From Bacteroidales bacterium (GTDB lineage: Bacteria; Bacteroidota; Bacteroidia; Bacteroidales; UBA4417), in the NCBI GenBank assembly GCA_035403165.1, contig DAONEP010000006.1:1496-65495 (forward strand): DNA of 64,000 nt. The letters are read 5' to 3'. Below the pieces are notes generated by a model. The model was not told where the DNA came from and did not search any database. It worked only from the letters and a program-made list of their open reading frames with translations. This document shows positions 19,557 to 38,110 of this stretch, piece by piece. The position numbers and the translations under genes were made by a program. How positions within the stretch are numbered: position 1 is the first letter of the stretch; each line of letters begins with the position of its first letter.

Positions 19557-20270
19557 TTATTTCTCGAATAACATAAGTTGATCTTGTTTGAGTTGAGGAA
19601 ATGAAGAAAGAAAAGCATACAACCTCTCTATATTGGTCTTGCCTATAACACGTTTATCGTTAATTCTATAATTGCATAGTTGGAATAAACTATTTACCTT
19701 TTGAGATTCTAAAAGATCTTGAATTTTCACCCAATATCTTGCTTGGATTCCAGAACCATTTACAAGGTCTTCAGATTTCATGCTAAGCAATTTCTTCAGT
19801 TTTTCAAATAGTGGGTCTGATGAAGAAGTATCAAATTCATATATTTCGATTTCAATATCCGGCAAATTTTGGAGATATTTTCGAGTAATACTTTTTATAG
19901 TATCAAGAGGTAACCCGCCATTCATAGCACCCATCCAAGGAAAAGCGACTGAGTTGATTCCGAGATTTTTATAATTTTCACAAAATTTCTTGAGGGTTTC
20001 TTCTATCCATTCTTTTTTAGAAGGATTTTTCCAATCATCTTTAATTGCGAAATTCAAAATCCACGGATAACTTTTTTTGTAGAGGAGAATCTGGCCAGGT
20101 TTTAAAAGATGCTGAGTACAGATTTTTTGGTATTCTTTGAACATTTCCGGGAAACGAAGTCTAAACTCCAGAGCAATCCCTTTACCCATTACACCTACAC
20201 AATTCACAGTATTTACAAGAGCCATTGCTTGGGAGTTAAAGATATTTCCTAGAATTTCTATGTAGGCCAT
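19557..20270 (-). CDS. Macrodomain protein, DarG-like ADP-ribosyl glycohydrolase, with a C-terminal tail of about 85 aa
   Basis: ALVNTVNCVGVMGKGIALEFRLRFPEMFKEY and WMGAMNGGL closely resemble the DarG/TARG1-type macrodomain signature. The start lies 1 nt after the stop of the upstream giant gene. Confidence 0.8.
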   Translation of the reverse strand: MAYIEILGNIFNSQAMALVNTVNCVGVMGKGIALEFRLRFPEMFKEYQKICTQHLLKPGQILLYKKSYPWILNFAIKDDWKNPSKKEWIEETLKKFCENYKNLGINSVAFPWMGAMNGGLPLDTIKSITRKYLQNLPDIEIEIYEFDTSSSDPLFEKLKKLLSMKSEDLVNGSGIQARYWVKIQDLLESQKVNSLFQLCNYRINDKRVIGKTNIERLYAFLSSFPQLKQDQLMLFEK

Positions 20271-20271
20271 A

Positions 20272-23200
20272 CTATTTATTTTTAATACATGCTATTAGAT
20301 CCCTGTAGGGGTCGTTCCATTTAATGTCGTTTGTCAAACCAGGCAATAAATCCATAAAGTTGATTATCCTATTACCAATCTCTGTTTTGAATAATTCAAG
20401 ACGAAGATACGATTTATCACACTTTGATCGAAAGCGGCCTCGGTCTAATGCATCAGCATCTTTCAGAACTTTCCAAATAATGCTATCTTTGACCATAGAT
20501 GGGCATTCAGAATCAGCGACAGAATGATATATTATGGCATTTAGCGCTTGATTTTGGGTGTCTTTTTCGAGAACAAACTCACTGATCTTTGAATCATATT
20601 TCTTAGCGGATTTTAAGCCATGTGAAGGACCTTCCATATCAGATGATTTACCTAGATCATGAATAATTGCTGAATAATAGATAGCATCCTTAATTTGAGA
20701 CGAGATCATATCTGAGTACTTTAGTATCAGACAGGTTCCAAATAAAACTCTTGTAGTGTGAGCGATGCCATGATTTGAGTCAACCATTTTGGGTTCGAAT
20801 AAACTCCTGGATATCTTGAGTTTTAAACGAACCTCAAGCTGTAAAAATTCCTCAATTAGGTCTTCAGAAATTAGTGATTCTGAGTAATCAGTTGAGATGA
20901 TACTGGAATTTTTATTAGTGCTATAATTGGAATATACAATCCATTCACGTTTCCCAAGGGCCAGATCAACGAAACGAACCTCAATTGGTTTCTCTGTGAT
21001 TGTGAATCGTAATTCAGGATAGGCCATTATTTCGTCATCGGTTTCCTTGATAATTTTTTCGATATTGAGTATTTGAGTGTTCTTTAAACCTGAGCCTTTG
21101 ATTGAAAGATATGCATTATCGAGGTATTCAGATCGGATTGAAACTTCATTATTATCAAAATTAACAATAAGTTCTCTATTCATCCTGTGAAAAATATCCC
21201 ACCCATCTGCATTAATTTTCTTACAAATAGGGTCGTTGCCTAATTGAGATTTTAGCAAGTTAGCATATTCTTCGTTATAACAAATGATTTCAAATGAATC
21301 TAATGTTGAAAAATCAAATTCCTCAAGAACAAGAAATTCCTGTTGAGAATATTGTTTGTAATTTTCATAATCTGAAACTTCAGAATATAGATGCAATGTA
21401 TTGAGCGATTTAGGATTTTCGCTAACTTTTTCTACTCTTGCCCAATTTGTTTGCATATTTCCAGTACTATAAAAGCACTTGTTGGAAATTTTCATTATAA
21501 CTTCTTTCAAATTAAATTTGAAGAATACCGGGATAGGACACCTGGGTAATCCGAGATTACGAAATTGGGGATAATACGATTTCCAAATTTTTGACCATAT
21601 TTTATTGCCCTTCCAATCATACCCATCGAAAGCCCATCCTTCCTTGCCTGACTTGGAATCCATACCTAAGCATTCATTATAAAACTGCGTCGGGGTCTGA
21701 GTACGAAAATAAAATCGAGCGTAGTCGTGTGCAGTGCTTCGTCTTGCTACAAGATTACCTGCGGCATTGGAAAATTTACCATCAGCTTTGTTTCGACTAA
21801 GAATTTTCCGGCTTTTGATAATATCAATTGCATTGAATAGATGCGTAAAATGATAAATGTATGGTTCTCTGTCAAATTGCTCTAAAAATTCAACACAATT
21901 GAATTCTTCTTTGTATTTGCTTTTAGCATTGCCAATTTTTTCAATTATTTGAGGGTTTTTTCGTAGCAATTGCCAATCCCAGTTTTTGCGATACTTTTCA
22001 ATAAGTTCTTCCGTAAATTGAATTTCCAGCGATTCTGAAACATTTGACCAATTCAGAACATCTGAAAATGGTTCAAGAAGTTCGTTTGTTATTCTAAAAT
22101 CCTTTCTAGAATTAATCTCAATCCAATTCAATTTGTCTTTAAATAGTTTCAGATTTTCAGTATACATTTTAAACTTATCTGATTGAGAAATAAAATCCCA
22201 ATCGACATAATTTTGATACTTACTTAAAAATGAAATATCGGAAATATCAACAACTTCATTTTGGGTTATAAATTTCCAATCTAGACTTTCCTTATAATCC
22301 CAAAGAATTTCGGTTGAAAGATTTATATTTTTAGAAATTGCCTTCCAATCAATGTTTTGAGATTTAAGTAAAGAAAGCGTTTTAGAATTAGGTACAAAAG
22401 ATTTGTTCTGGGAAATTAGATACCAATTAATTGGCTTGCCTATCAATTTAATTACAAGTTCTTCAGAAAAAGCAATATCTGCTCTAGTTGATATAGCCTC
22501 CCAATCCCAATTCTGGTTTAAAAGTTCTATAAAGATTTCATTTTCAAACTTAATGTCATTTCTACCTGAAAGAGTTTCCCATTCCCAAGGCTTTTCTTTA
22601 TTTTCTTTTATAAATGCTAGAGAAAGTTTAACCGAAAGATTTTCTGATAGAGATGTCCAATCCCAATCATTACTAATTGTTTCAGCGAGTAGTTTCTCTG
22701 TGATATCTGAATCAGTTCTTTTAGAGAAAGAAGTAAAGTTGATAAACTTAGCGAACTTGCGGAATCGTCTTAAAAAATCTCTTTCTTTTTTGAAGCAACT
22801 GCTAAATTCTGATAGATACTCCCAATCCCATTTTTCCGACTCAATACTTAGAATTGAATCGTTCCAATTAATGTTATCTAACCTCGATAACGACTTGAAA
22901 TCCCACTTATAGGATTTGTTTTTCAATAATCTAAAAATGTCTTTTAGCCATACCTCATAGCTAAACAGAGACTTATCATATTGAAAAGATTTATTTAGTG
23001 CAATAGAACCTGATAATGTTTTCCAATCAACAAACTCGATGTTTTCGTTCAAATATTGCCTTGGATTAAAACTTGTCAAATCGTAGAAATAGCTATAATC
23101 CCATTGAAATACATCTTGATTAAATGTTTGGGAAACCAAATTTTCTAACTCTTCATAATCAAATTTGCTGGTAATTGTCTTCCAAAGTTGCTGCTTTAGC

Positions 23201-25563
23201 TCTTCGTTAAAAACATAGATACATTTTGCAACCTCTGTCAAATATTTAGAAGGTTGTAAATCTCCTTTTTCAAAGCGCTTTTTTAAAAGCATATCCCAAT
23301 TCCAGTAATCATTATACTCAGGTAGGTGATTTATGACAAATTCCTTATTTAAATTAATTGATAGGTAATCCCAATCCCAATATTCAAGATATAAATCTAA
23401 TTTATCTTCAATAATAGATAAATCAATATTCGTAGTAAGGTAGTTCCAATCCCACTTGTTAACCCATTTAGGATTACCAAGAGAATCAATTTTTATTGTA
23501 GAACAAAAGCGCTTTGTAAGAATAGACCAATCCCAATTATAATCAATATGGTTAAGAATAAACTCCTTGGAGGATTTTTCAGTAACATCTTTCCAGCATC
23601 CTGAGTTAATCTCCAAATAAGATAAAACATTTGCCTTAAAAAAAACTGCCTCTAATGTTTGGCCCGATATTCTTTTAAGCAGGATGTCAAAATTAAGTTT
23701 GTCTTTTACTGATATTAAGAACTCTGAATCATTTATCAGATTCTCATTTTCGGAAATTATATCCCAATTCCAGTTAAAATCAGGAAACTTATTAATAATC
23801 CCAGTCTCTGAGATGCGAGCAGAAATAAAATTAGAACCCTTTTGGGTTTTAATTTTTGAATTGTACTTTGTAAAAAAGTCCGGATTCCATTCAATAAATG
23901 GATTACATTCGAAACCTAGAACAAAGCTACCGCTTTCCCAGGTTAAGTACCCTGAGCTTTCTAACAAGGAAATAAGTTGATCTGTCCAAAAATAATTAGC
24001 CAGATTGGGCTGATAATCAGATAATGTAAATTCTTGTGCCGATAGAAGCACTTGAACAAAGTGAGCGGAATCACAAAACAATTTTGTATGATTTTCGGAA
24101 GCAAAAGCCCGATTGATTAAAATTTTGAGATTAAGAAATCCACTAAATTGTTGTATATTTTCTAAAATAAAGAACAAATCATAATCAGTCGAAATGAACA
24201 ACCAATTCCATTTTTTATCAGGGTATATCTCAATTAGCCTTTTTACCTCATTGTTATTGATTTCTGTCAATTCGGATAATTCAAAGTTTATTGTATTTAT
24301 ATTAGATTTGATAAACTCGAAATCCAACAACGGCATTATTCTATCCCAATCCCATTCATACTCTTTTAGTTCTGGAATCAGTAATAATGTTTTTAGGATT
24401 TCAATGCTAATATCTTCTTTGGCTGATATAATTTCAAAATTCCAAGGAAATAGAGTAGCATTTTGGATTAAAAAAACATCGTCAATCCTTAAGGATATGG
24501 AAGTCCAATCAAGATTGTCTCTATATGTTTTAAAGTACAGCTTTAATACATCAATCGGACAATGGTTTGAAATATTGAACCATTGATTTGCGTTTGCATT
24601 CTCACCCATGAAGGTAAACAATTGATTATCTTCCCAACACAAACGGGTGTCTTCTACAAGTGAATCCAAATCCAATAAATCTTCAAATGGTCTTATGGAC
24701 TTATAATCTAAAACAGCCGATGGGTCTTTTAAAAGTTTCAAGTACAAGCCCCATTCTATTTTTTTCTCTTTTGAGTCTGTATTATCTTGGCTATTCAATA
24801 AATCGGTTGCCTCATTGCAGATTTTACTGTTGTAGAATATTATTGGAAAGTATTCAGTGCCCTGTTTGTAAAGACGAATTTCTACCTGAATACTTGATAA
24901 TTTAAAGTGATTTGTTGGTTCCGATTTAAAAATTTGATAATTTTCTTTGGACTGTAAATTATGGCGTTTAATTAACTCTGATTCAACAATTTTAAATGCA
25001 TCATTGATGTCAACTTGATCATATTTAATTTGTGTTTTTCCTGTAATTTCGGAAAACTCGCCCAGTGAAGAATAAAATGGAAAAAAAATATTCTCCTTTA
25101 ATCCTGCAGGTTTGATATTGGTATTTTCTAATAACTCCTTATCCCCAGTATAGAATTTATATTTTTCTCCTAACGAAAGTGCCCTGTACCCTAAATCAGT
25201 CAATTTGAAAATAACAGGAAGTCCTTTCTCTGAAATTTGCTCAACTATACCCCAACCTAAAACAGGTTTAATAATAGCTTTAAAAATATCAAATTCAGCT
25301 TTATCGGCATATTGTTTGGGAGTTGCTTCAAAGTCGTCAAACACATTGAATCCCAATATTGTAGCAATTTTATTTTCTTCAATGAAACCATTGTTTGATT
25401 CAAGCATACTACAAATAATTCTGTCAATATCTTCAAGTGGGAAAGTTTCATAAAACGAAACCTTACAAGTGGTTTCTTTTAAACTCCAGGTGCGAAATCC
25501 TTTATCTTCAGCAACTGAAGCGTAAACAAGTTCAGAATTATTAACTATTTCTTGCCAATTCAT
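20272..25563 (-). CDS. 1763-aa multidomain protein. It has an unknown N-terminus, about 20 W-D-W repeats, a DarT-like (DUF4433) ADP-ribosyltransferase domain (about aa 1233-1440) and a C-terminal HD domain (about aa 1595-1715).
   Basis: DarT-like motifs are PYIYHFTHLFNAIDIIKSRKILSRN, LVARRSTAHDYARFYFRTQTPTQFYNE and YSQQEFLVLEEFDF. HD motifs are NHGIAHTTRV, IIHDLGK, IIYHSVAD and KDADALDRGRF. It is a single uninterrupted ORF in about 30% GC DNA. Confidence 0.85.
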   Translation of the reverse strand: MNWQEIVNNSELVYASVAEDKGFRTWSLKETTCKVSFYETFPLEDIDRIICSMLESNNGFIEENKIATILGFNVFDDFEATPKQYADKAEFDIFKAIIKPVLGWGIVEQISEKGLPVIFKLTDLGYRALSLGEKYKFYTGDKELLENTNIKPAGLKENIFFPFYSSLGEFSEITGKTQIKYDQVDINDAFKIVESELIKRHNLQSKENYQIFKSEPTNHFKLSSIQVEIRLYKQGTEYFPIIFYNSKICNEATDLLNSQDNTDSKEKKIEWGLYLKLLKDPSAVLDYKSIRPFEDLLDLDSLVEDTRLCWEDNQLFTFMGENANANQWFNISNHCPIDVLKLYFKTYRDNLDWTSISLRIDDVFLIQNATLFPWNFEIISAKEDISIEILKTLLLIPELKEYEWDWDRIMPLLDFEFIKSNINTINFELSELTEINNNEVKRLIEIYPDKKWNWLFISTDYDLFFILENIQQFSGFLNLKILINRAFASENHTKLFCDSAHFVQVLLSAQEFTLSDYQPNLANYFWTDQLISLLESSGYLTWESGSFVLGFECNPFIEWNPDFFTKYNSKIKTQKGSNFISARISETGIINKFPDFNWNWDIISENENLINDSEFLISVKDKLNFDILLKRISGQTLEAVFFKANVLSYLEINSGCWKDVTEKSSKEFILNHIDYNWDWSILTKRFCSTIKIDSLGNPKWVNKWDWNYLTTNIDLSIIEDKLDLYLEYWDWDYLSINLNKEFVINHLPEYNDYWNWDMLLKKRFEKGDLQPSKYLTEVAKCIYVFNEELKQQLWKTITSKFDYEELENLVSQTFNQDVFQWDYSYFYDLTSFNPRQYLNENIEFVDWKTLSGSIALNKSFQYDKSLFSYEVWLKDIFRLLKNKSYKWDFKSLSRLDNINWNDSILSIESEKWDWEYLSEFSSCFKKERDFLRRFRKFAKFINFTSFSKRTDSDITEKLLAETISNDWDWTSLSENLSVKLSLAFIKENKEKPWEWETLSGRNDIKFENEIFIELLNQNWDWEAISTRADIAFSEELVIKLIGKPINWYLISQNKSFVPNSKTLSLLKSQNIDWKAISKNINLSTEILWDYKESLDWKFITQNEVVDISDISFLSKYQNYVDWDFISQSDKFKMYTENLKLFKDKLNWIEINSRKDFRITNELLEPFSDVLNWSNVSESLEIQFTEELIEKYRKNWDWQLLRKNPQIIEKIGNAKSKYKEEFNCVEFLEQFDREPYIYHFTHLFNAIDIIKSRKILSRNKADGKFSNAAGNLVARRSTAHDYARFYFRTQTPTQFYNECLGMDSKSGKEGWAFDGYDWKGNKIWSKIWKSYYPQFRNLGLPRCPIPVFFKFNLKEVIMKISNKCFYSTGNMQTNWARVEKVSENPKSLNTLHLYSEVSDYENYKQYSQQEFLVLEEFDFSTLDSFEIICYNEEYANLLKSQLGNDPICKKINADGWDIFHRMNRELIVNFDNNEVSIRSEYLDNAYLSIKGSGLKNTQILNIEKIIKETDDEIMAYPELRFTITEKPIEVRFVDLALGKREWIVYSNYSTNKNSSIISTDYSESLISEDLIEEFLQLEVRLKLKISRSLFEPKMVDSNHGIAHTTRVLFGTCLILKYSDMISSQIKDAIYYSAIIHDLGKSSDMEGPSHGLKSAKKYDSKISEFVLEKDTQNQALNAIIYHSVADSECPSMVKDSIIWKVLKDADALDRGRFRSKCDKSYLRLELFKTEIGNRIINFMDLLPGLTNDIKWNDPYRDLIACIKNK
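21949..24516 (-). repeat. Protein-level repeat array with a period of about 25-26 aa and core W-[DNE]-W-x2-[LI]-[ST]-x-[NR]
   Basis: Examples are NWDWSILTKR, KWDWNYLTTN, YWDWDYLSIN, KWDWEYLSEF, DWDWTSLSEN, PWEWETLSGR, NWDWEAISTR, IDWKAISKN, VDWDFISQS and NWDWQLLRKN. The W positions 967, 993, 1019, 1047, 1073, 1096, 1122, 1147, 1172 and 1195 give spacings of 23-28 aa. Confidence 0.7.
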
Positions 25564-28500
25564 TTTGCTTTATACTTTATAATTCGACCATTGGGATTAC
25601 TTGCAATCGTTCTATATACATTGTCATATATTTCTTTTTGCCTAAACAGTTCACTATTACCAACAATAATAAGTAATCGTTTCGCACGAGATAACGCAAC
25701 ATTTAAACGATTAGGCGATTGAGCAAAACCTAAGTCATTTTGTGCAGGAAATCCCAATTCACCATAGAGGTAATAATCTGCTCTTTGTTTCTTATCTGAA
25801 GCAATACAATTACTTCTGACCATGGAAACAATGATTATGTTACGCTCCATACCCTGGAACCGGTCAACTGTACTAACTCTAATCGGGATTTCGTTAAATT
25901 CTCGCCTAATATTGCGCAACAGCTTTATTTGTTTATTGTAAAAACTAATAAGACCAATTTGTTGGTCTTCTGGATTTTCCCAAAACGCCTGATATTTTTT
26001 AAAGCTATCTGAATTGCGAATCATAGTTAGGACATGACGAATAGCATCAACTTCTCCCATATTTATTCTTGAGGTCCCATCTAACATTTCAGGTGAATTG
26101 GTGTCCAACCAAATTACATGGTTGCTTGGTGAGATTAGTCCTTCAACTTCAATTCCATGATAACGAGAAGCAGGATTATTCATGTTCTGGTCATTAACAC
26201 CTAAGTCGATAGGTGATATTAAGCCACATTCCAGACCACCATCCTGAATATAGAACTGCTTAATAACATCATTTATGTCAGGATGCATACGATATTGCAG
26301 GTTAAAAACTCCTTTCAAACTTCTATCTATATCTTTAAAAAGACGTTCGAAATGTGAAATTTCCATTTCTTTAAAATGTTTGGTAATATATAACTTTAGA
26401 TATAGTAATTTTTTTCTCTCTTCAACATTATCTATTCTATCAAGTAGATAATCAAAAGATAATATAAATTCTTCTTTATCAAGTAGTGGTGGTAATTGCC
26501 GGTGGTCTCCTATTACAATGTTTTTTTTACCGTAAATTAATGGTAGAGATAATTCGGCAGGGGTCGCTTTACTTGATTCATCCTGAATTACAGTAGTAAA
26601 GTAGATCTTATTCCGTGAGCTATTTGTCGGAAATCTATGTTCATTAGTCGAAAAATGATTTGGGCCAAAAATCTCACAATAGTTTTTGTAGAAACTTGTG
26701 GGTTTACCTCTTGTGTTTTTTTCACCGATTGAACTGCATGTTGCACCAACTACATTACAATATTTTAAATAGTTTGAATAAAAAATCTTTCGTAATTCCT
26801 TAGATGGATGAGTTAATAGTCTTAGCCAAAGTTCAAATATACCTTTATCAAGTTCTGACTGACTGATTCTTGATCGAATGTTATCAATCCAATTTTGCAG
26901 GATTAATTTTTGTGGTAACAGTTCATCTTCTTCAGACTTTTCATCAGAATCATATTGAATCGATCCATTTTCAACCCATTTTTTCATTAAATCAAGTGAA
27001 AATTGACGACCTTCTATTTCCAGTTTATCTTCGTCACCAAATCGAATAGGTTTCACTAAATTGTGATTTTTATTAACAATGCGATCAATAGCATTATCAA
27101 CTGCCAGATTGGTCTCGGAAGTAAGTAATATCCTTTCATTGGCATTTTTACGGATATGTTGCCACATTATTTCTGCAATAGCAGTTGATTTCCCAGTACC
27201 AGGTGGACCTTGAATTATGACTAGATCTTCAGCCAATAACGTTTTAATAATAGCATGCTTTTGCGAATCATTCACTTGCTTATTCAACAAGTGATTTTCT
27301 ATCTCTACATATGTTTCGCTTTGAGAATTTGTATGGTAATCAATATCATCTATTTTTTTTGCTTTTCCCGAGTCGAAGATAAAATCTTTCAAATTTGGGT
27401 TTTGCAAATTTTCTCCGCTTTTTATTCTATCGAGAGAATTTCTAAGTCTGTGAATTTTTTCTAAGTCACCAGTCACATCAGGATTAATCGAGGATACGAT
27501 ACTTTTTTCAAATAAAAGTGAAGTTTGCTCGCATTTATCGCCAGATATATCAAAAATCAATTCGGGATAATTAACTTTTATCAGCTTTCCAAAATAGTTT
27601 TTGCCAACATTAAAATCATGGCCTCGAAGTTCTTTCAAGACAGCAGAGAGTGATTCTTTCTGAGAATGAGGATCGAGTATAAATAAGTACTTTTCTTTGG
27701 ACTCTGGAATCTTAAAAAGACCAAGATTAAAAGAATCTGCGTTCAATGAATTTATTTCTGATTCAATAATCTGTCTGAGCCTAATGCATTGTTCTGAGGA
27801 TTGATATGGTTGATAAAAATAAAATTCACCTTTTTTGTCATTTCTAAGGCATTGGATTGATGGGAATTTCTCGCGCAAAATAGCTTCTACCTGATCTAAA
27901 GACAAATTTTGTATTTGTAAATCAACGTTACACTTGTGATTCTTATAAAGATTAAAATTTAAAAAAGGGTATTTAAGTGAAAGATTCTCAATGAGATTGT
28001 CTATTGATTCATTTTGCCAATTAAAATCCATTCCAATACTATTTGTGCTTTCACTGATACTTACTGTCTCGTTATCACTCGAAGCATATATTTGCGCCCA
28101 AACATCAGATTCGGAGTAATAATGTTTCGGCAGATAATCAGTGTCAAACTTATAAAGATCATATGTATATATGAATTTCGCTCTGAATTTTATGTTTTCA
28201 GAACCAAAATAAGAGTCAAAGAATCGCTTTAATCGTGTATATTTTAGATCGAAATCCCATTTTTCTTCGTAATAAGAACGAAATAGGTCATCTTTTTCTA
28301 TGTTATTATCTTTGAGACTTGTATGAAAAGTAAATGACCACTCATCGCGATTTAGTTCTGGTAGAATAATGGATGATGTCTTGGGATCATATTTTGAGAG
28401 TACACGAGGATCAACAAAAAAAGTAAAGTCGTATCCAAAAACCGTTAGTCCGATCTCATCTTTTAACTTGTTCAGTACAGCATTGTTCAAATATCCACCA

Positions 28501-29198
28501 ATTATTTCAATAGATCTTTGCACGATTGATATGTACTCTTCGTTATTTCCTAAATTGATTGCTTCTTTGTTCTTTTTTCTGTGACAAAGGGTTCTGTGAT
28601 TAAAGTTTAAATCGGGAAATTCTTTGGAAAGGAAGAATATTGGATTGGGACGAACTTGTAAAACAACGCTTGCGGTATCGGGAATTTGAATATTTATATT
28701 AGACAGTGAAAGGGAATTTGCTAACCTAACTATATCTGGAATTGAAACCTGCAACCTTTCCCTTCTATCAAATGAATAATCAATATTAGAAAGTTCCATT
28801 ATTTTTTTAAGCTTGTCAATTGTAGACTCTTTCTCAATTACGTAACCATCTATGACAGGATAAGGAGTAAAATTGATAAAATTTGCCGCAGCCCTCTCAG
28901 ATAATCTTTTTTTGACCACATAATCAATATTTCGAGCAATCCTACTTTCTGCAAAAAAGTAACCATTTTCAGTATTTATATCATCAATTGAAATTCTAAA
29001 TTCTTTTGAAATTTCAGCAAGGATCTCATCAATTTTTGCATTTTCGTCTGCAATCAGGTAAAGTTTATCACCAACAATTTTAGAGGAATTCGAAATAATT
29101 GATACAGGAATTGAGCGTGAAAGAAGAATTTGTTCCTGAACTTCGGTAAACTTCTGCCAGATTTCCTGAAGCTCAATTCTTGGATTTACGTTTTTCAT
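25560..29198 (-). CDS. SF1B (Upf1/DNA2-like, AAA_11/AAA_12 type) helicase with an uncharacterised N-terminal region of about 630 aa
   Basis: Walker A is IIQGPPGTGKST. Other motifs are VIQDESSKATPAE, VIGDHRQLPP, VDRFQGMERNIIIVS and RLNVALSRAKRLLIIVGN. Its stop overlaps the next gene's start by 4 nt. Confidence 0.85.
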   Translation of the reverse strand: MKNVNPRIELQEIWQKFTEVQEQILLSRSIPVSIISNSSKIVGDKLYLIADENAKIDEILAEISKEFRISIDDINTENGYFFAESRIARNIDYVVKKRLSERAAANFINFTPYPVIDGYVIEKESTIDKLKKIMELSNIDYSFDRRERLQVSIPDIVRLANSLSLSNINIQIPDTASVVLQVRPNPIFFLSKEFPDLNFNHRTLCHRKKNKEAINLGNNEEYISIVQRSIEIIGGYLNNAVLNKLKDEIGLTVFGYDFTFFVDPRVLSKYDPKTSSIILPELNRDEWSFTFHTSLKDNNIEKDDLFRSYYEEKWDFDLKYTRLKRFFDSYFGSENIKFRAKFIYTYDLYKFDTDYLPKHYYSESDVWAQIYASSDNETVSISESTNSIGMDFNWQNESIDNLIENLSLKYPFLNFNLYKNHKCNVDLQIQNLSLDQVEAILREKFPSIQCLRNDKKGEFYFYQPYQSSEQCIRLRQIIESEINSLNADSFNLGLFKIPESKEKYLFILDPHSQKESLSAVLKELRGHDFNVGKNYFGKLIKVNYPELIFDISGDKCEQTSLLFEKSIVSSINPDVTGDLEKIHRLRNSLDRIKSGENLQNPNLKDFIFDSGKAKKIDDIDYHTNSQSETYVEIENHLLNKQVNDSQKHAIIKTLLAEDLVIIQGPPGTGKSTAIAEIMWQHIRKNANERILLTSETNLAVDNAIDRIVNKNHNLVKPIRFGDEDKLEIEGRQFSLDLMKKWVENGSIQYDSDEKSEEDELLPQKLILQNWIDNIRSRISQSELDKGIFELWLRLLTHPSKELRKIFYSNYLKYCNVVGATCSSIGEKNTRGKPTSFYKNYCEIFGPNHFSTNEHRFPTNSSRNKIYFTTVIQDESSKATPAELSLPLIYGKKNIVIGDHRQLPPLLDKEEFILSFDYLLDRIDNVEERKKLLYLKLYITKHFKEMEISHFERLFKDIDRSLKGVFNLQYRMHPDINDVIKQFYIQDGGLECGLISPIDLGVNDQNMNNPASRYHGIEVEGLISPSNHVIWLDTNSPEMLDGTSRINMGEVDAIRHVLTMIRNSDSFKKYQAFWENPEDQQIGLISFYNKQIKLLRNIRREFNEIPIRVSTVDRFQGMERNIIIVSMVRSNCIASDKKQRADYYLYGELGFPAQNDLGFAQSPNRLNVALSRAKRLLIIVGNSELFRQKEIYDNVYRTIASNPNGRIIKYKAK

Positions 29199-29293: not shown

Positions 29294-31354
29294 CTACAAA
29301 AACCACAAATTATCTTTTCCAAATTCAGGGACATCGAGGCCGTCGAAGTGGGGGGCTATCTGGGCGATGATTTCGGGGTATTTGATGGTGACAGGTAGGT
29401 TCTGCTGGCGTACTGATTTCCAGTACATGCGGCTGAACTGGTACACCTGGTCTATCAGGTCGCGGATGATGGTTGTATCGTCCAGCTTGCTTTTATCGGT
29501 ACAATCAATTTTCAATTTGATTGGGAACGGCCATCCGTCGGCTTCGCGAAACGGCTGATTGCTGTAACGGGTATTGTTAAACAGCAGGTATTTGCGGTTT
29601 CCAATGTTGATATAGGTTCCGCTGTAAGGCATTTTATCGCTCCATGATTCATCGAAAGCCACAATATCCTCAGATTCCGTTTTGTTGATGGATATAATAA
29701 AGACAGGAATGTGAAGGTCCAAGGCTTCGAGGGCTTTCTGGATGGGTTGCAGCTCATCGTCGGACATGGTCTTGTAGAAATGGATAATCAACCTGTCAGG
29801 TGAGGAATTGACCGTTGCATATTCACGAATCTGGTGAGAGATAGATCCGGCAAGCAATTCGAGTTCATGTTTCATGAAATACTCGAAGCGGTTGAAAGTG
29901 CCATTGTTGTTGAAGCTAAAAGCACTGCCAATATACTGAACATCGGTTTCGATGTGTTTGAATGCTCCAACACCGACAATGAGTTCGTTTTTTAGCTGGG
30001 CTTTCAAACGCCAGGGCGTTCCTTTTAACTTAGCCAGGATTGCAATGGAAATATTTGTAAGGCTGTAAACATAATCAGCACCCTGTTCAATGACCTTTTT
30101 TGAATCGATGACCTGTGAGGGTATATCCCTTTTAAGCAGCAGCTCTTTGACCTTATAGTAGATTTCACGTTTTTGTAAATCCTGATCAAACTTGGTGTAA
30201 GGGGTCAAATAGATGGCAAAGTACTTCACATCCTGATTGAAGCTGCGTTTTGCCAATACTTCATTTATTTCCTGTACCGGATTTTCTTTGTCCTTAAACA
30301 GGATGCTGAAATGCGGTTCGGTGTGAAAAAGTATTTTTACATACTTATTCAAGCCTTTAAACCAGTCTAAACCGGTTTCGAGGTATGTTTTCACTGCTTT
30401 GGCAATCTCGGCATCGGAATTATGAAGGATAAAGAACAGATGTATCTTTTTGTAAGGGGTTTTGTCGTATGGACCGTTTAATTTGATGCCATTGTGAGGA
30501 ACAATATCGGTTGCGCTATTTCCGAATACCATCTGATTGCTATCGAAGTTGGTAGTGCTGATGAGTGCAGGATTCACTTTCAGAAAGCCTGTATGATGCA
30601 AAGGAATGATTTCACGGAACTCCTTTATGTTTAAGAAAGTCTTGTGAAAATCGTTAATCTTGTTCCGGTAATGCTTGTACTTGTTTTCTTTTGAAGGTAT
30701 TGGCGCAGGGAAACCAAGCGCCCTTGCAAGTTCGTTATTCAATACCGGATAAACGTTTTCGTAATCATCAGACAAGTCATCCGGCAGATCATCGAATTTA
30801 TGCAATTGGTTTTTTACCATTACCCAATTTAACAACGAAGGCGAATTATCAGCCATCAGTTCAGCTACACTCTTCTTCAAAACCTTGGATGTACCTTCGT
30901 ATGATATAAAGATTTCTGGGTATTGGCTCACTGTAGCGATCTGGACCTTGAGTGCATATTTTTCATATACTTCAAACTGGTCGGTATCTGCCGCAGGTAC
31001 TGGCAACCAAATGGTATTCTCCTTAATAAATCCAACCTGGACAATCTGATTAACGATTACCCGGAAGTAGTAGTTTATTTTCCGATCGAAATAGCGCTTT
31101 ATGAATGCGGGTGTTTCTTTTCTTGCATCCAAGGTGCAAGGAATAAAGCCTGCTGTTTCGCCAGTGAATGTGGTATAAACAAAATCGGAGCCGTTGGCAC
31201 TTATTCCGGGAAATATAGTTTCAACTGCAGCCGGGAAGATTGATTTGTGGATACGCTGGCAACGGCCGTTGTCCGCTTTGCTGAAATAGAAAGTTAGCTT
31301 TTCTTCAGGCCAGTCGAAGGTAAGTATGTTGAAATGGAGATCGGGAGGAGGCAT
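29294..31354 (-). CDS. Prokaryotic Argonaute (MID-PIWI), predicted catalytically inactive (long-B-like / DdmE-like)
   Basis: MID-like motifs are YYKVKELLLKRDIPSQVI and NISIAILAKLKGTPWRL. The PIWI motifs have lost their acidic residues (IVGVGAFKH instead of GxDV, LIIHFYK instead of hRDG). Also seen are LPVTIKYPEIIAQ and the C-terminal NLWFL. Confidence 0.8.
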   Translation of the reverse strand: MPPPDLHFNILTFDWPEEKLTFYFSKADNGRCQRIHKSIFPAAVETIFPGISANGSDFVYTTFTGETAGFIPCTLDARKETPAFIKRYFDRKINYYFRVIVNQIVQVGFIKENTIWLPVPAADTDQFEVYEKYALKVQIATVSQYPEIFISYEGTSKVLKKSVAELMADNSPSLLNWVMVKNQLHKFDDLPDDLSDDYENVYPVLNNELARALGFPAPIPSKENKYKHYRNKINDFHKTFLNIKEFREIIPLHHTGFLKVNPALISTTNFDSNQMVFGNSATDIVPHNGIKLNGPYDKTPYKKIHLFFILHNSDAEIAKAVKTYLETGLDWFKGLNKYVKILFHTEPHFSILFKDKENPVQEINEVLAKRSFNQDVKYFAIYLTPYTKFDQDLQKREIYYKVKELLLKRDIPSQVIDSKKVIEQGADYVYSLTNISIAILAKLKGTPWRLKAQLKNELIVGVGAFKHIETDVQYIGSAFSFNNNGTFNRFEYFMKHELELLAGSISHQIREYATVNSSPDRLIIHFYKTMSDDELQPIQKALEALDLHIPVFIISINKTESEDIVAFDESWSDKMPYSGTYINIGNRKYLLFNNTRYSNQPFREADGWPFPIKLKIDCTDKSKLDDTTIIRDLIDQVYQFSRMYWKSVRQQNLPVTIKYPEIIAQIAPHFDGLDVPEFGKDNLWFL

Positions 31355-36448: not shown

Positions 36449-38110
36449 TTATAAGAGTACCCATTTTGACTTACTATCCGATCCAATATTCCTGATTATT
36501 TTTTTTTCTCTTAGCTCGGAAAGAAGGTTGGTGATTTTAAGTTTCTTTTGTTTGTCAGTATACAAATCAGACAATCTATCCCAAAGTAATTGTTCAATAT
36601 CTGGTCGTGAAAGATACCCGTGGTCTTTAATACCTTTGATAATCCAATCAAAGTATTGTTGTTTGGAGAAAGCCTTATTACGGGTATAGGCTGCTTTCTG
36701 ACCTGTAATTTGAGCAACCTTGGCCGAGATAATGAGATTTGGTTTCTTTCCTTCGATCAGACCTTTAGAGCGCAAAAGCTTAACCTGTTCAGTTGTTAGT
36801 TCGAAGCGTTTCTGCACTTTATCCAGCAGCATGATTTCTAACAAACTCAGAGAACTATTGCGTGCCAATACGCGGGCGTAATTAATATCGATAACTTTAC
36901 CTATAATTGTCAATTTCACCCTGTTACCAGCAAAATCATATTCGGGCATCGGAAAAAAACGCGTCCTCTGATAGTTGAACATTCTTTTAATACCACTTCC
37001 AATGGTATCCACCATTTTAAGATTGAACATGGCAGTGGCCAGGAAAGGATTCCGGTAGATTTCTTCAGGAGCATCCCTGTTGATTACATTCTCAACAGTG
37101 CCTGGAATAAAACTTCCAACATTAGTAAAGATCAGTTCATCCTCTTTCTCAACAACATTGATCTTTCCGGCAAGCGTATAATCCTGATGAGCTATACAAT
37201 TATTCAGCGCTTCACGTATAACATACGGTTCGTATTGGTCAACTTCTTCGGGAAAAATAGTATCATCGCGCAGGTAGCGATATTTAAGGTTTCGGATTCT
37301 TTTAAAAACTTCATCTGCGCTTAAAAGGAAAGGGCAACTGTAAACAGAATAGTCTTTCTCATTTCCTTCTTTGTCTTTTAATATCCAGCGAATTTTAACG
37401 TCTGCCGGACTTATAAAGTGTTCCGACTCAGGTTTACCCAGGAGAAGAATAGCAGTACGGGTAACCTTACCCCGTATCGTAATTTTAGCCTTATTAAGAA
37501 ACGTAATATCGTTCCATGAATCCACCTCAGTCGCCAGGTCAGGAAATTTATTTTTATAATTTTCTCTGGCTTTCAGGATTGCTTCAGGGTCGAGGTCAGA
37601 AATGTCAGCCTCATGGCAAATTGCAGAACTCCAATCGGGCATTGAAGCCTGGGCTCTTATCCGGTCAAGTTCTTCGATATTAAGGGGGGAAAGTTCCTGT
37701 CCGTTCCTGCCATAATAATGCCCTTCCCATGCTACGGGAATACCGCTCGGCGCAGCAGGTATCTGGAACATTACTACCCGTCCTTCCGGTAGATTAAGTT
37801 CATAGATTTCAATAAATGTGATTCCATTGGTTGTTTTACCGGCAATTTCTGCTTTAAGACTATCCAGATATGGGCGATTGTTATTCCTAAATAATGAACC
37901 AACAATATTTTTCTTCTTATCCTCAACGCCAAAGATCAGCCAGGATACGTGCTTGCCTTTAAGATTAGCCTCGTTGGATAAAGCAGAAAAGTACCTGCCC
38001 AATTTGTTGAAGTCGTAGTTGCGATTGGCTTCTTTAAACTCGACAACCTCGGTTTCGGCCGGTAATGAACGAAGTTCATTTAAAATCTGAACAAGCTGCG
38101 ACTCTGTCAT
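36449..38110 (-). CDS. AlbA_2 (Schlafen-like) DNA-binding domain protein with HATPase_c_4-like and C-terminal wHTH-like regions
   Basis: The N-terminus ESQLVQILNELRSLPAETEVVEFKEANRNYDFNKLGRYFSALSNEANLKG is typical of AAA_4/AlbA_2 'putative DNA-binding' proteins often embedded in R-M loci. Confidence 0.65.
   Translation of the reverse strand: MTESQLVQILNELRSLPAETEVVEFKEANRNYDFNKLGRYFSALSNEANLKGKHVSWLIFGVEDKKKNIVGSLFRNNNRPYLDSLKAEIAGKTTNGITFIEIYELNLPEGRVVMFQIPAAPSGIPVAWEGHYYGRNGQELSPLNIEELDRIRAQASMPDWSSAICHEADISDLDPEAILKARENYKNKFPDLATEVDSWNDITFLNKAKITIRGKVTRTAILLLGKPESEHFISPADVKIRWILKDKEGNEKDYSVYSCPFLLSADEVFKRIRNLKYRYLRDDTIFPEEVDQYEPYVIREALNNCIAHQDYTLAGKINVVEKEDELIFTNVGSFIPGTVENVINRDAPEEIYRNPFLATAMFNLKMVDTIGSGIKRMFNYQRTRFFPMPEYDFAGNRVKLTIIGKVIDINYARVLARNSSLSLLEIMLLDKVQKRFELTTEQVKLLRSKGLIEGKKPNLIISAKVAQITGQKAAYTRNKAFSKQQYFDWIIKGIKDHGYLSRPDIEQLLWDRLSDLYTDKQKKLKITNLLSELREKKIIRNIGSDSKSKWVLL

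Follow-up and report, generated by a model that had tools for sequence, protein, structure and literature searches.

The window analysed, a stretch of 64,000 nucleotides from a Bacteroidales genome, carries a short DarG-type macrodomain gene on the minus strand (19557-20270), which encodes a protein of 237 amino acids followed by a stop codon and was delimited, from an ATG start, by its open reading frame and by profile matches. The gene lies directly behind a giant gene on the same strand (20272-25563), whose product of 1763 amino acids consists of an N-terminal region, W-D-W repeats, a DarT domain and an HD domain. Read on the minus strand from the giant gene to the macrodomain gene, the junction is TAGTATG (20268-20274): the TAG stop codon of the giant gene (20272-20274) is separated by a single base from the ATG of the macrodomain gene (20268-20270), as originally predicted. 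This spacing suggests that the two genes are co-transcribed and that the macrodomain gene is translationally coupled to the giant gene. The corresponding gap measured 2-17 nt in six of nine giant-type loci; in locus L001 it is 3 nt, in locus L006 4 nt. A promoter and terminator scan around the macrodomain gene gave nothing above shuffled expectation, Bacteroidota promoters lying outside the models of the scan. On its other side the giant gene is overlapped by 4 nt by the gene for an SF1 helicase (AAA_11/AAA_12, MkoA-like; 25560-29198, minus strand), the first gene of a conserved module and present in all giant-type loci.

Residues 1232-1443 of the giant protein (21235-21870, minus strand) make up its DarT domain, which was recognized by Pfam (4.5e-13, 49.8 bits) and contains the motifs IYHFTH and HDYARFYF and the catalytic-Glu motif QQE(1409)FLV. 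In the alignment, E1409 falls on the glutamate that is mutated to alanine (E160A) in the crystallised Thermus DarT, and the invariant H, N and E-F positions are kept, so that the domain looks active. A profile of its clade matched the Thermus DarT structure 7omv at 1.6e-24 and E. coli DarT1 (8baq) at 0.0039. On these comparisons, the partner transferase is nearer to the thymidine-specific DarT2 than to DarT1, and with an antidote that is a macrodomain and not a NADAR protein the pair is of the DarTG2 type. The giant DarT domain also carries an insertion of about 50 residues (GMDSKSGKEGWAFDGYDWKGNKIWSKIWKSYYPQFRNLGL...) past the TPT motif, at residues ~1295-1345, which is found in neither plain DarT nor DarT-HD partners. 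The HD region of the giant (HGIAH..IIHDLGK..DADALDR; 20440-20760, minus strand) gave a weak Pfam HD match (E 0.017), its motifs could be located, and a homologous region is present in every giant and DarT-HD locus.

The host genome contains no DarT besides the domain of the giant and no second DarG-like macrodomain; its only other macrodomain belongs to a different, housekeeping-type gene on another contig. The three-gene module of helicase, giant and macrodomain has a GC content of 30-35%, against ~50% to its left and 40-44% on the right-hand side, where the pAgo and the restriction genes lie. No close homologue of the module was found among 40 related genomes, 24 of them of the same genus, and three of the 40 have an ordinary DarG of 345-354 aa instead. 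The long pAgo gene (29294-31354) was considered as a further component of the module and rejected: it is absent from every other giant-type locus, its GC content is ~40% compared with 30-35%, 95 nt lie between it and the helicase gene, and an S1-domain protein holds that position in other loci.

Macrodomain, helical tail and terminal peptide

The first 148 residues of the protein (19827-20270, minus strand) form the macrodomain, delimited with an AlphaFold2 model and Foldseek, within which Pfam Macro matches residues 19-126 (2e-14). The protein is also matched by the PADLOC DarG profile (PDLC02990) at 1.2e-52, and its best solved relatives in an HMMER search of the PDB are the DarG proteins of T. 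aquaticus (5m31, 2e-29) and M. tuberculosis (5m3i, 3.5e-26). The AlphaFold2 model, built with 44 homologues as input, has a mean pLDDT of 85 and a pTM of 0.81. Its top Foldseek matches are 5m31 and 5m3e, both T. aquaticus DarG, with target-normalised TM scores of 0.82-0.86 and an rmsd of 1.9-2.6 A, the value of 1.9 A being that for the ADP-ribose complex; human TARG1 appears lower in the list. By sequence and predicted fold, the protein is thus a DarG/TARG1-type macrodomain. The two motifs named in the original prediction were located in it, the loop-1 motif NTVNCVGVMGKGIALEF at residues 20-36 (20163-20213) and the loop-2 motif GAMNGGL at residues 114-120 (19911-19931), both on the minus strand, and their assignment to the DarG/TARG1 type agrees with the Macro and DarG profile matches.

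The catalytic lysine of T. aquaticus DarG is K80, whose replacement by alanine (K80A) leaves the enzyme inactive, and the residue that stacks on the thymidine is W83 (PMC9967889, a review). The HMMER alignments place AIK(77)DDW(80) of our protein opposite TK(80)KHW(83) of both solved DarGs, so that K77 corresponds to K80 and W80 to W83; the K77-D-D-W80 segment with the putative catalytic lysine and base-stacking tryptophan is encoded at 20031-20042 (minus strand). All 44 close homologues keep K77 and W80 as well as the residues of the glycine-rich loops (G26, M28, G29 and G31 in the first; G114 and G118 in the second), and the same lysine, tryptophan and loop glycines are invariant in a distant alignment of 16 sequences that takes in two canonical DarGs scoring above the NCBIfam cut-off. 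N20, T21 and N23 of loop 1 are likewise invariant, canonical DarG included. Aligning the protein with DarG, the check proposed along with the prediction, therefore revealed no loss of the catalytic lysine or of the glycine-rich loops.

The resemblance to canonical DarG stops shortly after the macrodomain. The NCBIfam DarG equivalog (NF048014) scored 172 bits against a cut-off of 250 and matched over only positions 6-169 of its 338, the PADLOC profile matched over positions 7-193 of 329, and a BLAST alignment with a canonical 368-aa DarG ended at residue 180. On these comparisons the DarT-sequestering C-terminal domain of canonical DarG is absent from the 237-aa protein, and it is because this domain is missing that the score falls under the NCBIfam cut-off. 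In EPEC DarG, residues 127-330 sequester DarT, and the macrodomain alone strips ADP-ribose from ssDNA and rescues cells from DarT (PMC7003065). The tail of about 85 residues noticed at first sight proved to be 89 residues long (149-237), compared with about 190-200 residues past the macrodomain in canonical DarG.

Most of this tail is folded in the model. Residues 149-222 (19605-19826, minus strand) form five helices with pLDDT above 90, which run to about residue 222 whether the whole protein or the tail alone is modelled, and the stretch is conserved: within its segment IGKTNIERL, residues G210, K211, T212 and N213 are invariant in the 44 close homologues. Judged from conservation and predicted structure, the 89-aa tail is a conserved folded module and not a remnant. 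The aligned segment of distant homologues resembles a classical helix-hairpin-helix (HhH), for example LQKVKGIGEKTIEKLYEF, and the tails of all eight relatives compared gave Pfam HhH matches (HHH_3, HHH_5, HHH, HHH_2), all of them sub-threshold, the best being HHH_3 with 26.2 bits against a cut-off of 27. The window's own tail had no match in Pfam; the tail-only model found nothing below E = 1 when compared with the PDB by Foldseek, and the tail sequence hit only RPA70 in the PDB, at a chance-level E of 0.13. The clade of the window, the Bacteroidales type, carries a 5-residue insertion in the second hairpin. We therefore describe the tail as HhH-like with moderate confidence. The net charge of the tail is near zero and the window's tail has no Pfam or Foldseek match, which leaves DNA binding by the tail weakly supported. 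A search for the tail outside macrodomain proteins yielded, among 39 candidates, macrodomain proteins and one 195-aa protein without Pfam annotation.

Past the last helix, residues 223-237 (19560-19604, minus strand) form a low-confidence linker in which pLDDT falls, with block means of 61 and 37 and values below 50 at residues 227-237 of the full model. The protein ends in QLMLFEK, the QLMLF lying at 19566-19580. In the short tailed homologues, linker and motif together extend a median of 16 residues past the last helix, and the leucine-phenylalanine pair is strongly enriched at the end: among 144 distinct C-termini of short DarGs, 76 show LF in their last six residues, compared with a mean of 5.9 and a maximum of 13 for shuffled linkers, and in 57 of the 144 LF is the very end. 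A comparable hydrophobic-aromatic ending is rare in long DarG-like proteins (9/46). The relatives mostly terminate in x-[S/D/N/Q]-L-F, the archaeal homologues bear the same kind of LF ending, and the more specific pattern Q-x-x-h-F occurs in 19 of the 144 C-termini against 0.7 in shuffled ones. The consensus for binding to the bacterial sliding clamp is QL[S/D]LF, reportedly defined by Dalrymple in 2001. QLMLF fits this consensus and lies within the low-pLDDT C-terminal stretch, the glutamine being present in only those 19 of the 144 family C-termini. A DinB homologue encoded elsewhere in the host genome (L098:769-2010, contig C31) has QIDLF about 50 residues from its C-terminus, plausibly a clamp-binding motif of the same form as QLMLF.

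Relatives of the short macrodomain protein and their toxin partners

The macrodomain protein has thousands of close homologues, typically of 237-240 aa and many of them from Bacteroidales; one Parabacteroides distasonis sequence was found in 2400 blocks of the sequence collection. In Parabacteroides and in metagenome contigs the gene order is constant, with an S1-domain protein (or S1 fused to the helicase), the SF1 helicase, a giant DarT of 1847-2035 aa and the macrodomain gene, which trails the giant by 3-4 nt.

In a survey with one genome per species, 80 loci were obtained, and four types were distinguished. The first, found mainly in Bacteroidales, has a giant repeat-DarT-HD protein followed by the short tailed macrodomain, with the helicase present. 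In the second, the short tailed macrodomain precedes a DarT-HD protein of 415-563 aa, and the hosts include Methanothrix, Methanoperedens, Altiarchaeales, Halobacteria, WOR-3 and Anaerolineaceae. The third has the short tailed macrodomain followed by a plain DarT of 213-228 aa, and in the fourth the macrodomain proteins are longer and the DarT arrangement is canonical or of another kind. The genome loci scanned contained 39 short macrodomains (226-270 aa), and a DarT open reading frame adjoins 32 of them; among the other seven, at least two are cut by a contig end.

A maximum-likelihood tree computed from the macrodomain columns only groups all macrodomains paired with DarT-HD or giant toxins into a single clade (SH-aLRT 100, 21 rows), within which the giant partners are nested, and canonical DarG forms a separate clade. 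The antidote thus follows the architecture of its toxin.

Several further observations were made in these loci. Two giant-type loci, L025 and L026, are labelled Oscillospiraceae and Clostridia, yet their macrodomains are nested among those of Bacteroidales loci on the tree, which reflects either recent transfer or mis-binning. In loci L063-L090 (for example L063:9-1518 and L087:8875-10348) a macrodomain protein of 281-313 aa is followed by a DarT open reading frame of 332-405 aa, mostly ~340, and this arrangement forms its own clade on the macrodomain tree (SH-aLRT 96). In a Methanoperedens locus, the macrodomain gene is followed by a gene (L033:10750-11727) for a 325-aa product that has 59% identity to a DarT-HD partner and keeps the HD-like region, with no Pfam DarT match; it may encode a decayed toxin. 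Parabacteroides loci carry a 555-aa SLFN/AlbA_2 gene directly after the macrodomain stop (L001:10721-12388). The window holds a full-length homologue of this gene (36% identity, 6e-99) at 36449-38110 on the minus strand, 16 kb from the macrodomain gene in the same island and amid restriction-modification genes. Elsewhere, a 515-aa S1-domain protein is encoded ahead of the helicase, or the helicase has S1 at its own N-terminus (L001:1-269, L006:314-4450), the S1-bearing form being 1378 aa long and also showing a Ppx-GppA match. Neither form was detected in the window, whose helicase gave no S1 match, and the place of the S1 protein is taken there by the long pAgo.

Function of the macrodomain protein

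We consider it likely that the macrodomain protein is the cognate enzymatic antidote of the giant's DarT domain, that is, a DarG-type ADP-ribosyl-DNA glycohydrolase. This is the best reading because the canonical C-terminal domain is missing and the macrodomain of a DarG can by itself be enough to protect cells against DarT, as reported for EPEC (PMC7003065). It agrees with the presence of a single DarT and a single DarG-like macrodomain in the genome, with the frequent adjacency of short macrodomains to DarT and with the one toxin-linked clade in the tree. The comparisons above show the family, the conserved residues, the gene architecture, the synteny and the co-phylogeny, whereas the substrate, the rescue of toxicity and the role of the tail are inferred. 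The macrodomain protein would be made from the same transcript as the toxin and directly after it. The DarT domain of the giant would place ADP-ribose on thymidines of the cell's own ssDNA, and the macrodomain enzyme would continuously take it off again by means of K77 and W80, the outcome being a type-IV-like enzymatic self-protection. The helical tail, which is probably HhH-like, and the flexible linker with its LF peptide may bring the enzyme to DNA or to a partner protein. The original prediction of an enzymatic antidote that need not act as a stoichiometric inhibitor is supported, with K77, W80 and both loops kept and the C-terminal domain missing, although the tail is not merely short and could add a docking or stoichiometric role. 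Several points weigh against this reading: the DarT of the giant is divergent, with its insertion and its score of 49.8 bits, and its target base or nucleic acid could differ; the protein falls short of the NCBIfam DarG cut-off (172 against 250 bits); DNA binding by the tail is weakly supported; and conservation of the tail and of the LF peptide hints at an interaction with a partner, for which a model of catalysis alone has no use.

Such an interaction is the core of an explanation that does not exclude the antidote reading and that we hold to be possible but less likely than not: besides catalysis, the tail, the LF peptide or both would attach to the DarT (or HD) portion of the giant and inactivate it stoichiometrically, the tail being a smaller functional replacement for the canonical C-terminal domain. 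Canonical DarG uses both modes (PMC7003065). The tail with its LF ending accompanies all three DarT architectures in bacteria and archaea, DarT being the sole common partner, and both the enrichment of LF over shuffled linkers, with its rarity in long DarG-like proteins, and the confinement of the tail to macrodomain proteins in the search described above fit with this explanation. Yet some 75 folded residues would have to do the work of a canonical sequestering domain of ~200, the DarG profiles match just the first 20-45 residues of the tail, and the tails of relatives resemble a motif that binds nucleic acids. The peptide can also be read as a tether to the replisome, where QLMLF would bind the beta sliding clamp and hold the glycohydrolase at forks, the place where ssDNA meets DarT. 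Its fit to the clamp-binding consensus five residues before the end of the protein in a low-confidence stretch, the x-[S/D/N/Q]-L-F endings of most relatives, the enrichment of Q-x-x-h-F and the QIDLF of the host DinB speak for this, but most family members lack the glutamine, the archaeal homologues bear the same peptide even though their clamp, PCNA, uses another motif, and the module moves between distant hosts; we regard the tether as unlikely. Taken more broadly as a docking motif, which would either tether the glycohydrolase to the sliding clamp or plug a pocket on DarT, the LF peptide is a tentative proposal that we put only slightly higher. If it were true, immunity to DarT-HD toxins would rest on the placement of a repair enzyme and not on sequestration of the toxin.

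The substrate itself could be another one, such as RNA carrying ADP-ribose, a product made by the HD domain or the giant itself after auto-ADP-ribosylation, in which case the protein would regulate the system and not repair DNA. TARG1-type macrodomains also cleave protein-Glu-ADP-ribose, TARG1 is among the Foldseek matches, and the toxin clade, besides being divergent, carries a fused HD hydrolase. We find this improbable in view of the invariance of the DNA-specific features of DarG, the lysine and the stacking tryptophan, of the toxin clade being closest to thymidine-specific DarT, and of the pairing of the same short macrodomain type with plain DarT devoid of HD. That an orphan anti-DarT macrodomain of a phage or mobile element, or a housekeeping macrodomain, lies beside the giant gene by chance is hardly credible and is disfavoured. 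DarG-like macrodomains do occur in 278 phage records, but the phage homologues span residues 1-147 only, at less than 45% identity and without the tail; the adjacency to DarT is conserved across phyla, and the genome encodes its housekeeping macrodomain in a separate gene on another contig.

DarTG serves as a model of how DNA is reversibly ADP-ribosylated, with roles in phage defence and in growth control of M. tuberculosis, and its antidote is commonly seen as a two-domain protein, an enzyme joined to a toxin sequestrator. The short subfamily puts a small helical tail and a terminal peptide where the sequestering domain stood. It ranges over human-gut Bacteroidales, in which it is common (for example in Parabacteroides distasonis), archaea, Chloroflexota, WOR-3 and other phyla, and co-diversifies with DarT-HD toxins up to helicase-associated giants of 2000 aa, so providing a natural test of whether catalysis alone suffices for immunity to DarT and of what extra modules add. 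Current HMM rules under-call these short tailed proteins as DarG.

Comparison with known systems

The protein was filed as a variant of DarG, because the macrodomain and the presumed mode of DarG are kept and the sequestering C-terminal domain, one of the defining features of the curated family, is missing. Searches of the literature on DarG with helix-hairpin-helix, DarT with an HD domain and DarTG in Bacteroides found no description of the short subfamily. The short DarGs with an HhH-like tail thus form a large and apparently undescribed subfamily.

Canonical DarG of DarTG2 systems (T. aquaticus, M. tuberculosis, EPEC) shares with our protein a macrodomain of 38-47% identity, the same predicted fold, the lysine, the tryptophan and the loops, and is likewise encoded beside a DarT2-like transferase. 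It is, however, ~330-400 aa long and has a sequestering C-terminal domain, whereas the protein described here has 237 aa and a helical tail of ~75 aa with a terminal LF instead; the toxin of the window is, moreover, a domain of a 1763-aa protein with HD, and a helicase gene is also present. The short HhH-tailed macrodomains beside plain DarT or DarT-HD (for example in loci L043, L048, L027 and L045) are of 226-270 aa, carry the same tail and LF architecture and are 38-63% identical over their full length. There the macrodomain gene precedes that of the toxin, which has only 213-563 aa, whereas in the window the toxin comes first and the tail has the 5-residue insertion. The orphan DarG-like macrodomains of phages, which act as anti-DarTG factors (PMC13309987, PMC11481870), are also short and without a sequestering domain; they differ in being phage-borne with no adjoining DarT and in matching only residues 1-147, without the tail.

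Human TARG1 (C6orf130) belongs to the same macrodomain subclass and has an equivalent catalytic lysine, but it is only 18-19% identical and is a stand-alone eukaryotic enzyme without a toxin partner. In the DarTG fusion of Thermosipho africanus (7OMU), DarT and a similar macrodomain (5.4e-18) are also very tightly linked, being fused where the window has a 1-nt gap between genes; its one polypeptide chain of 406 aa is without HD, repeats, helicase or HhH-like tail. DarHTG (Liu-DS3, E. coli; PMC13069673) is, like the module of the window, a DarT system with a recruited helicase, which is an essential component there. It combines a UvrD-like helicase with an ARH-type antidote, DarG3, and a separate small DarT, whereas the window combines a Upf1/MkoA-like SF1 helicase with a DarG-type macrodomain.
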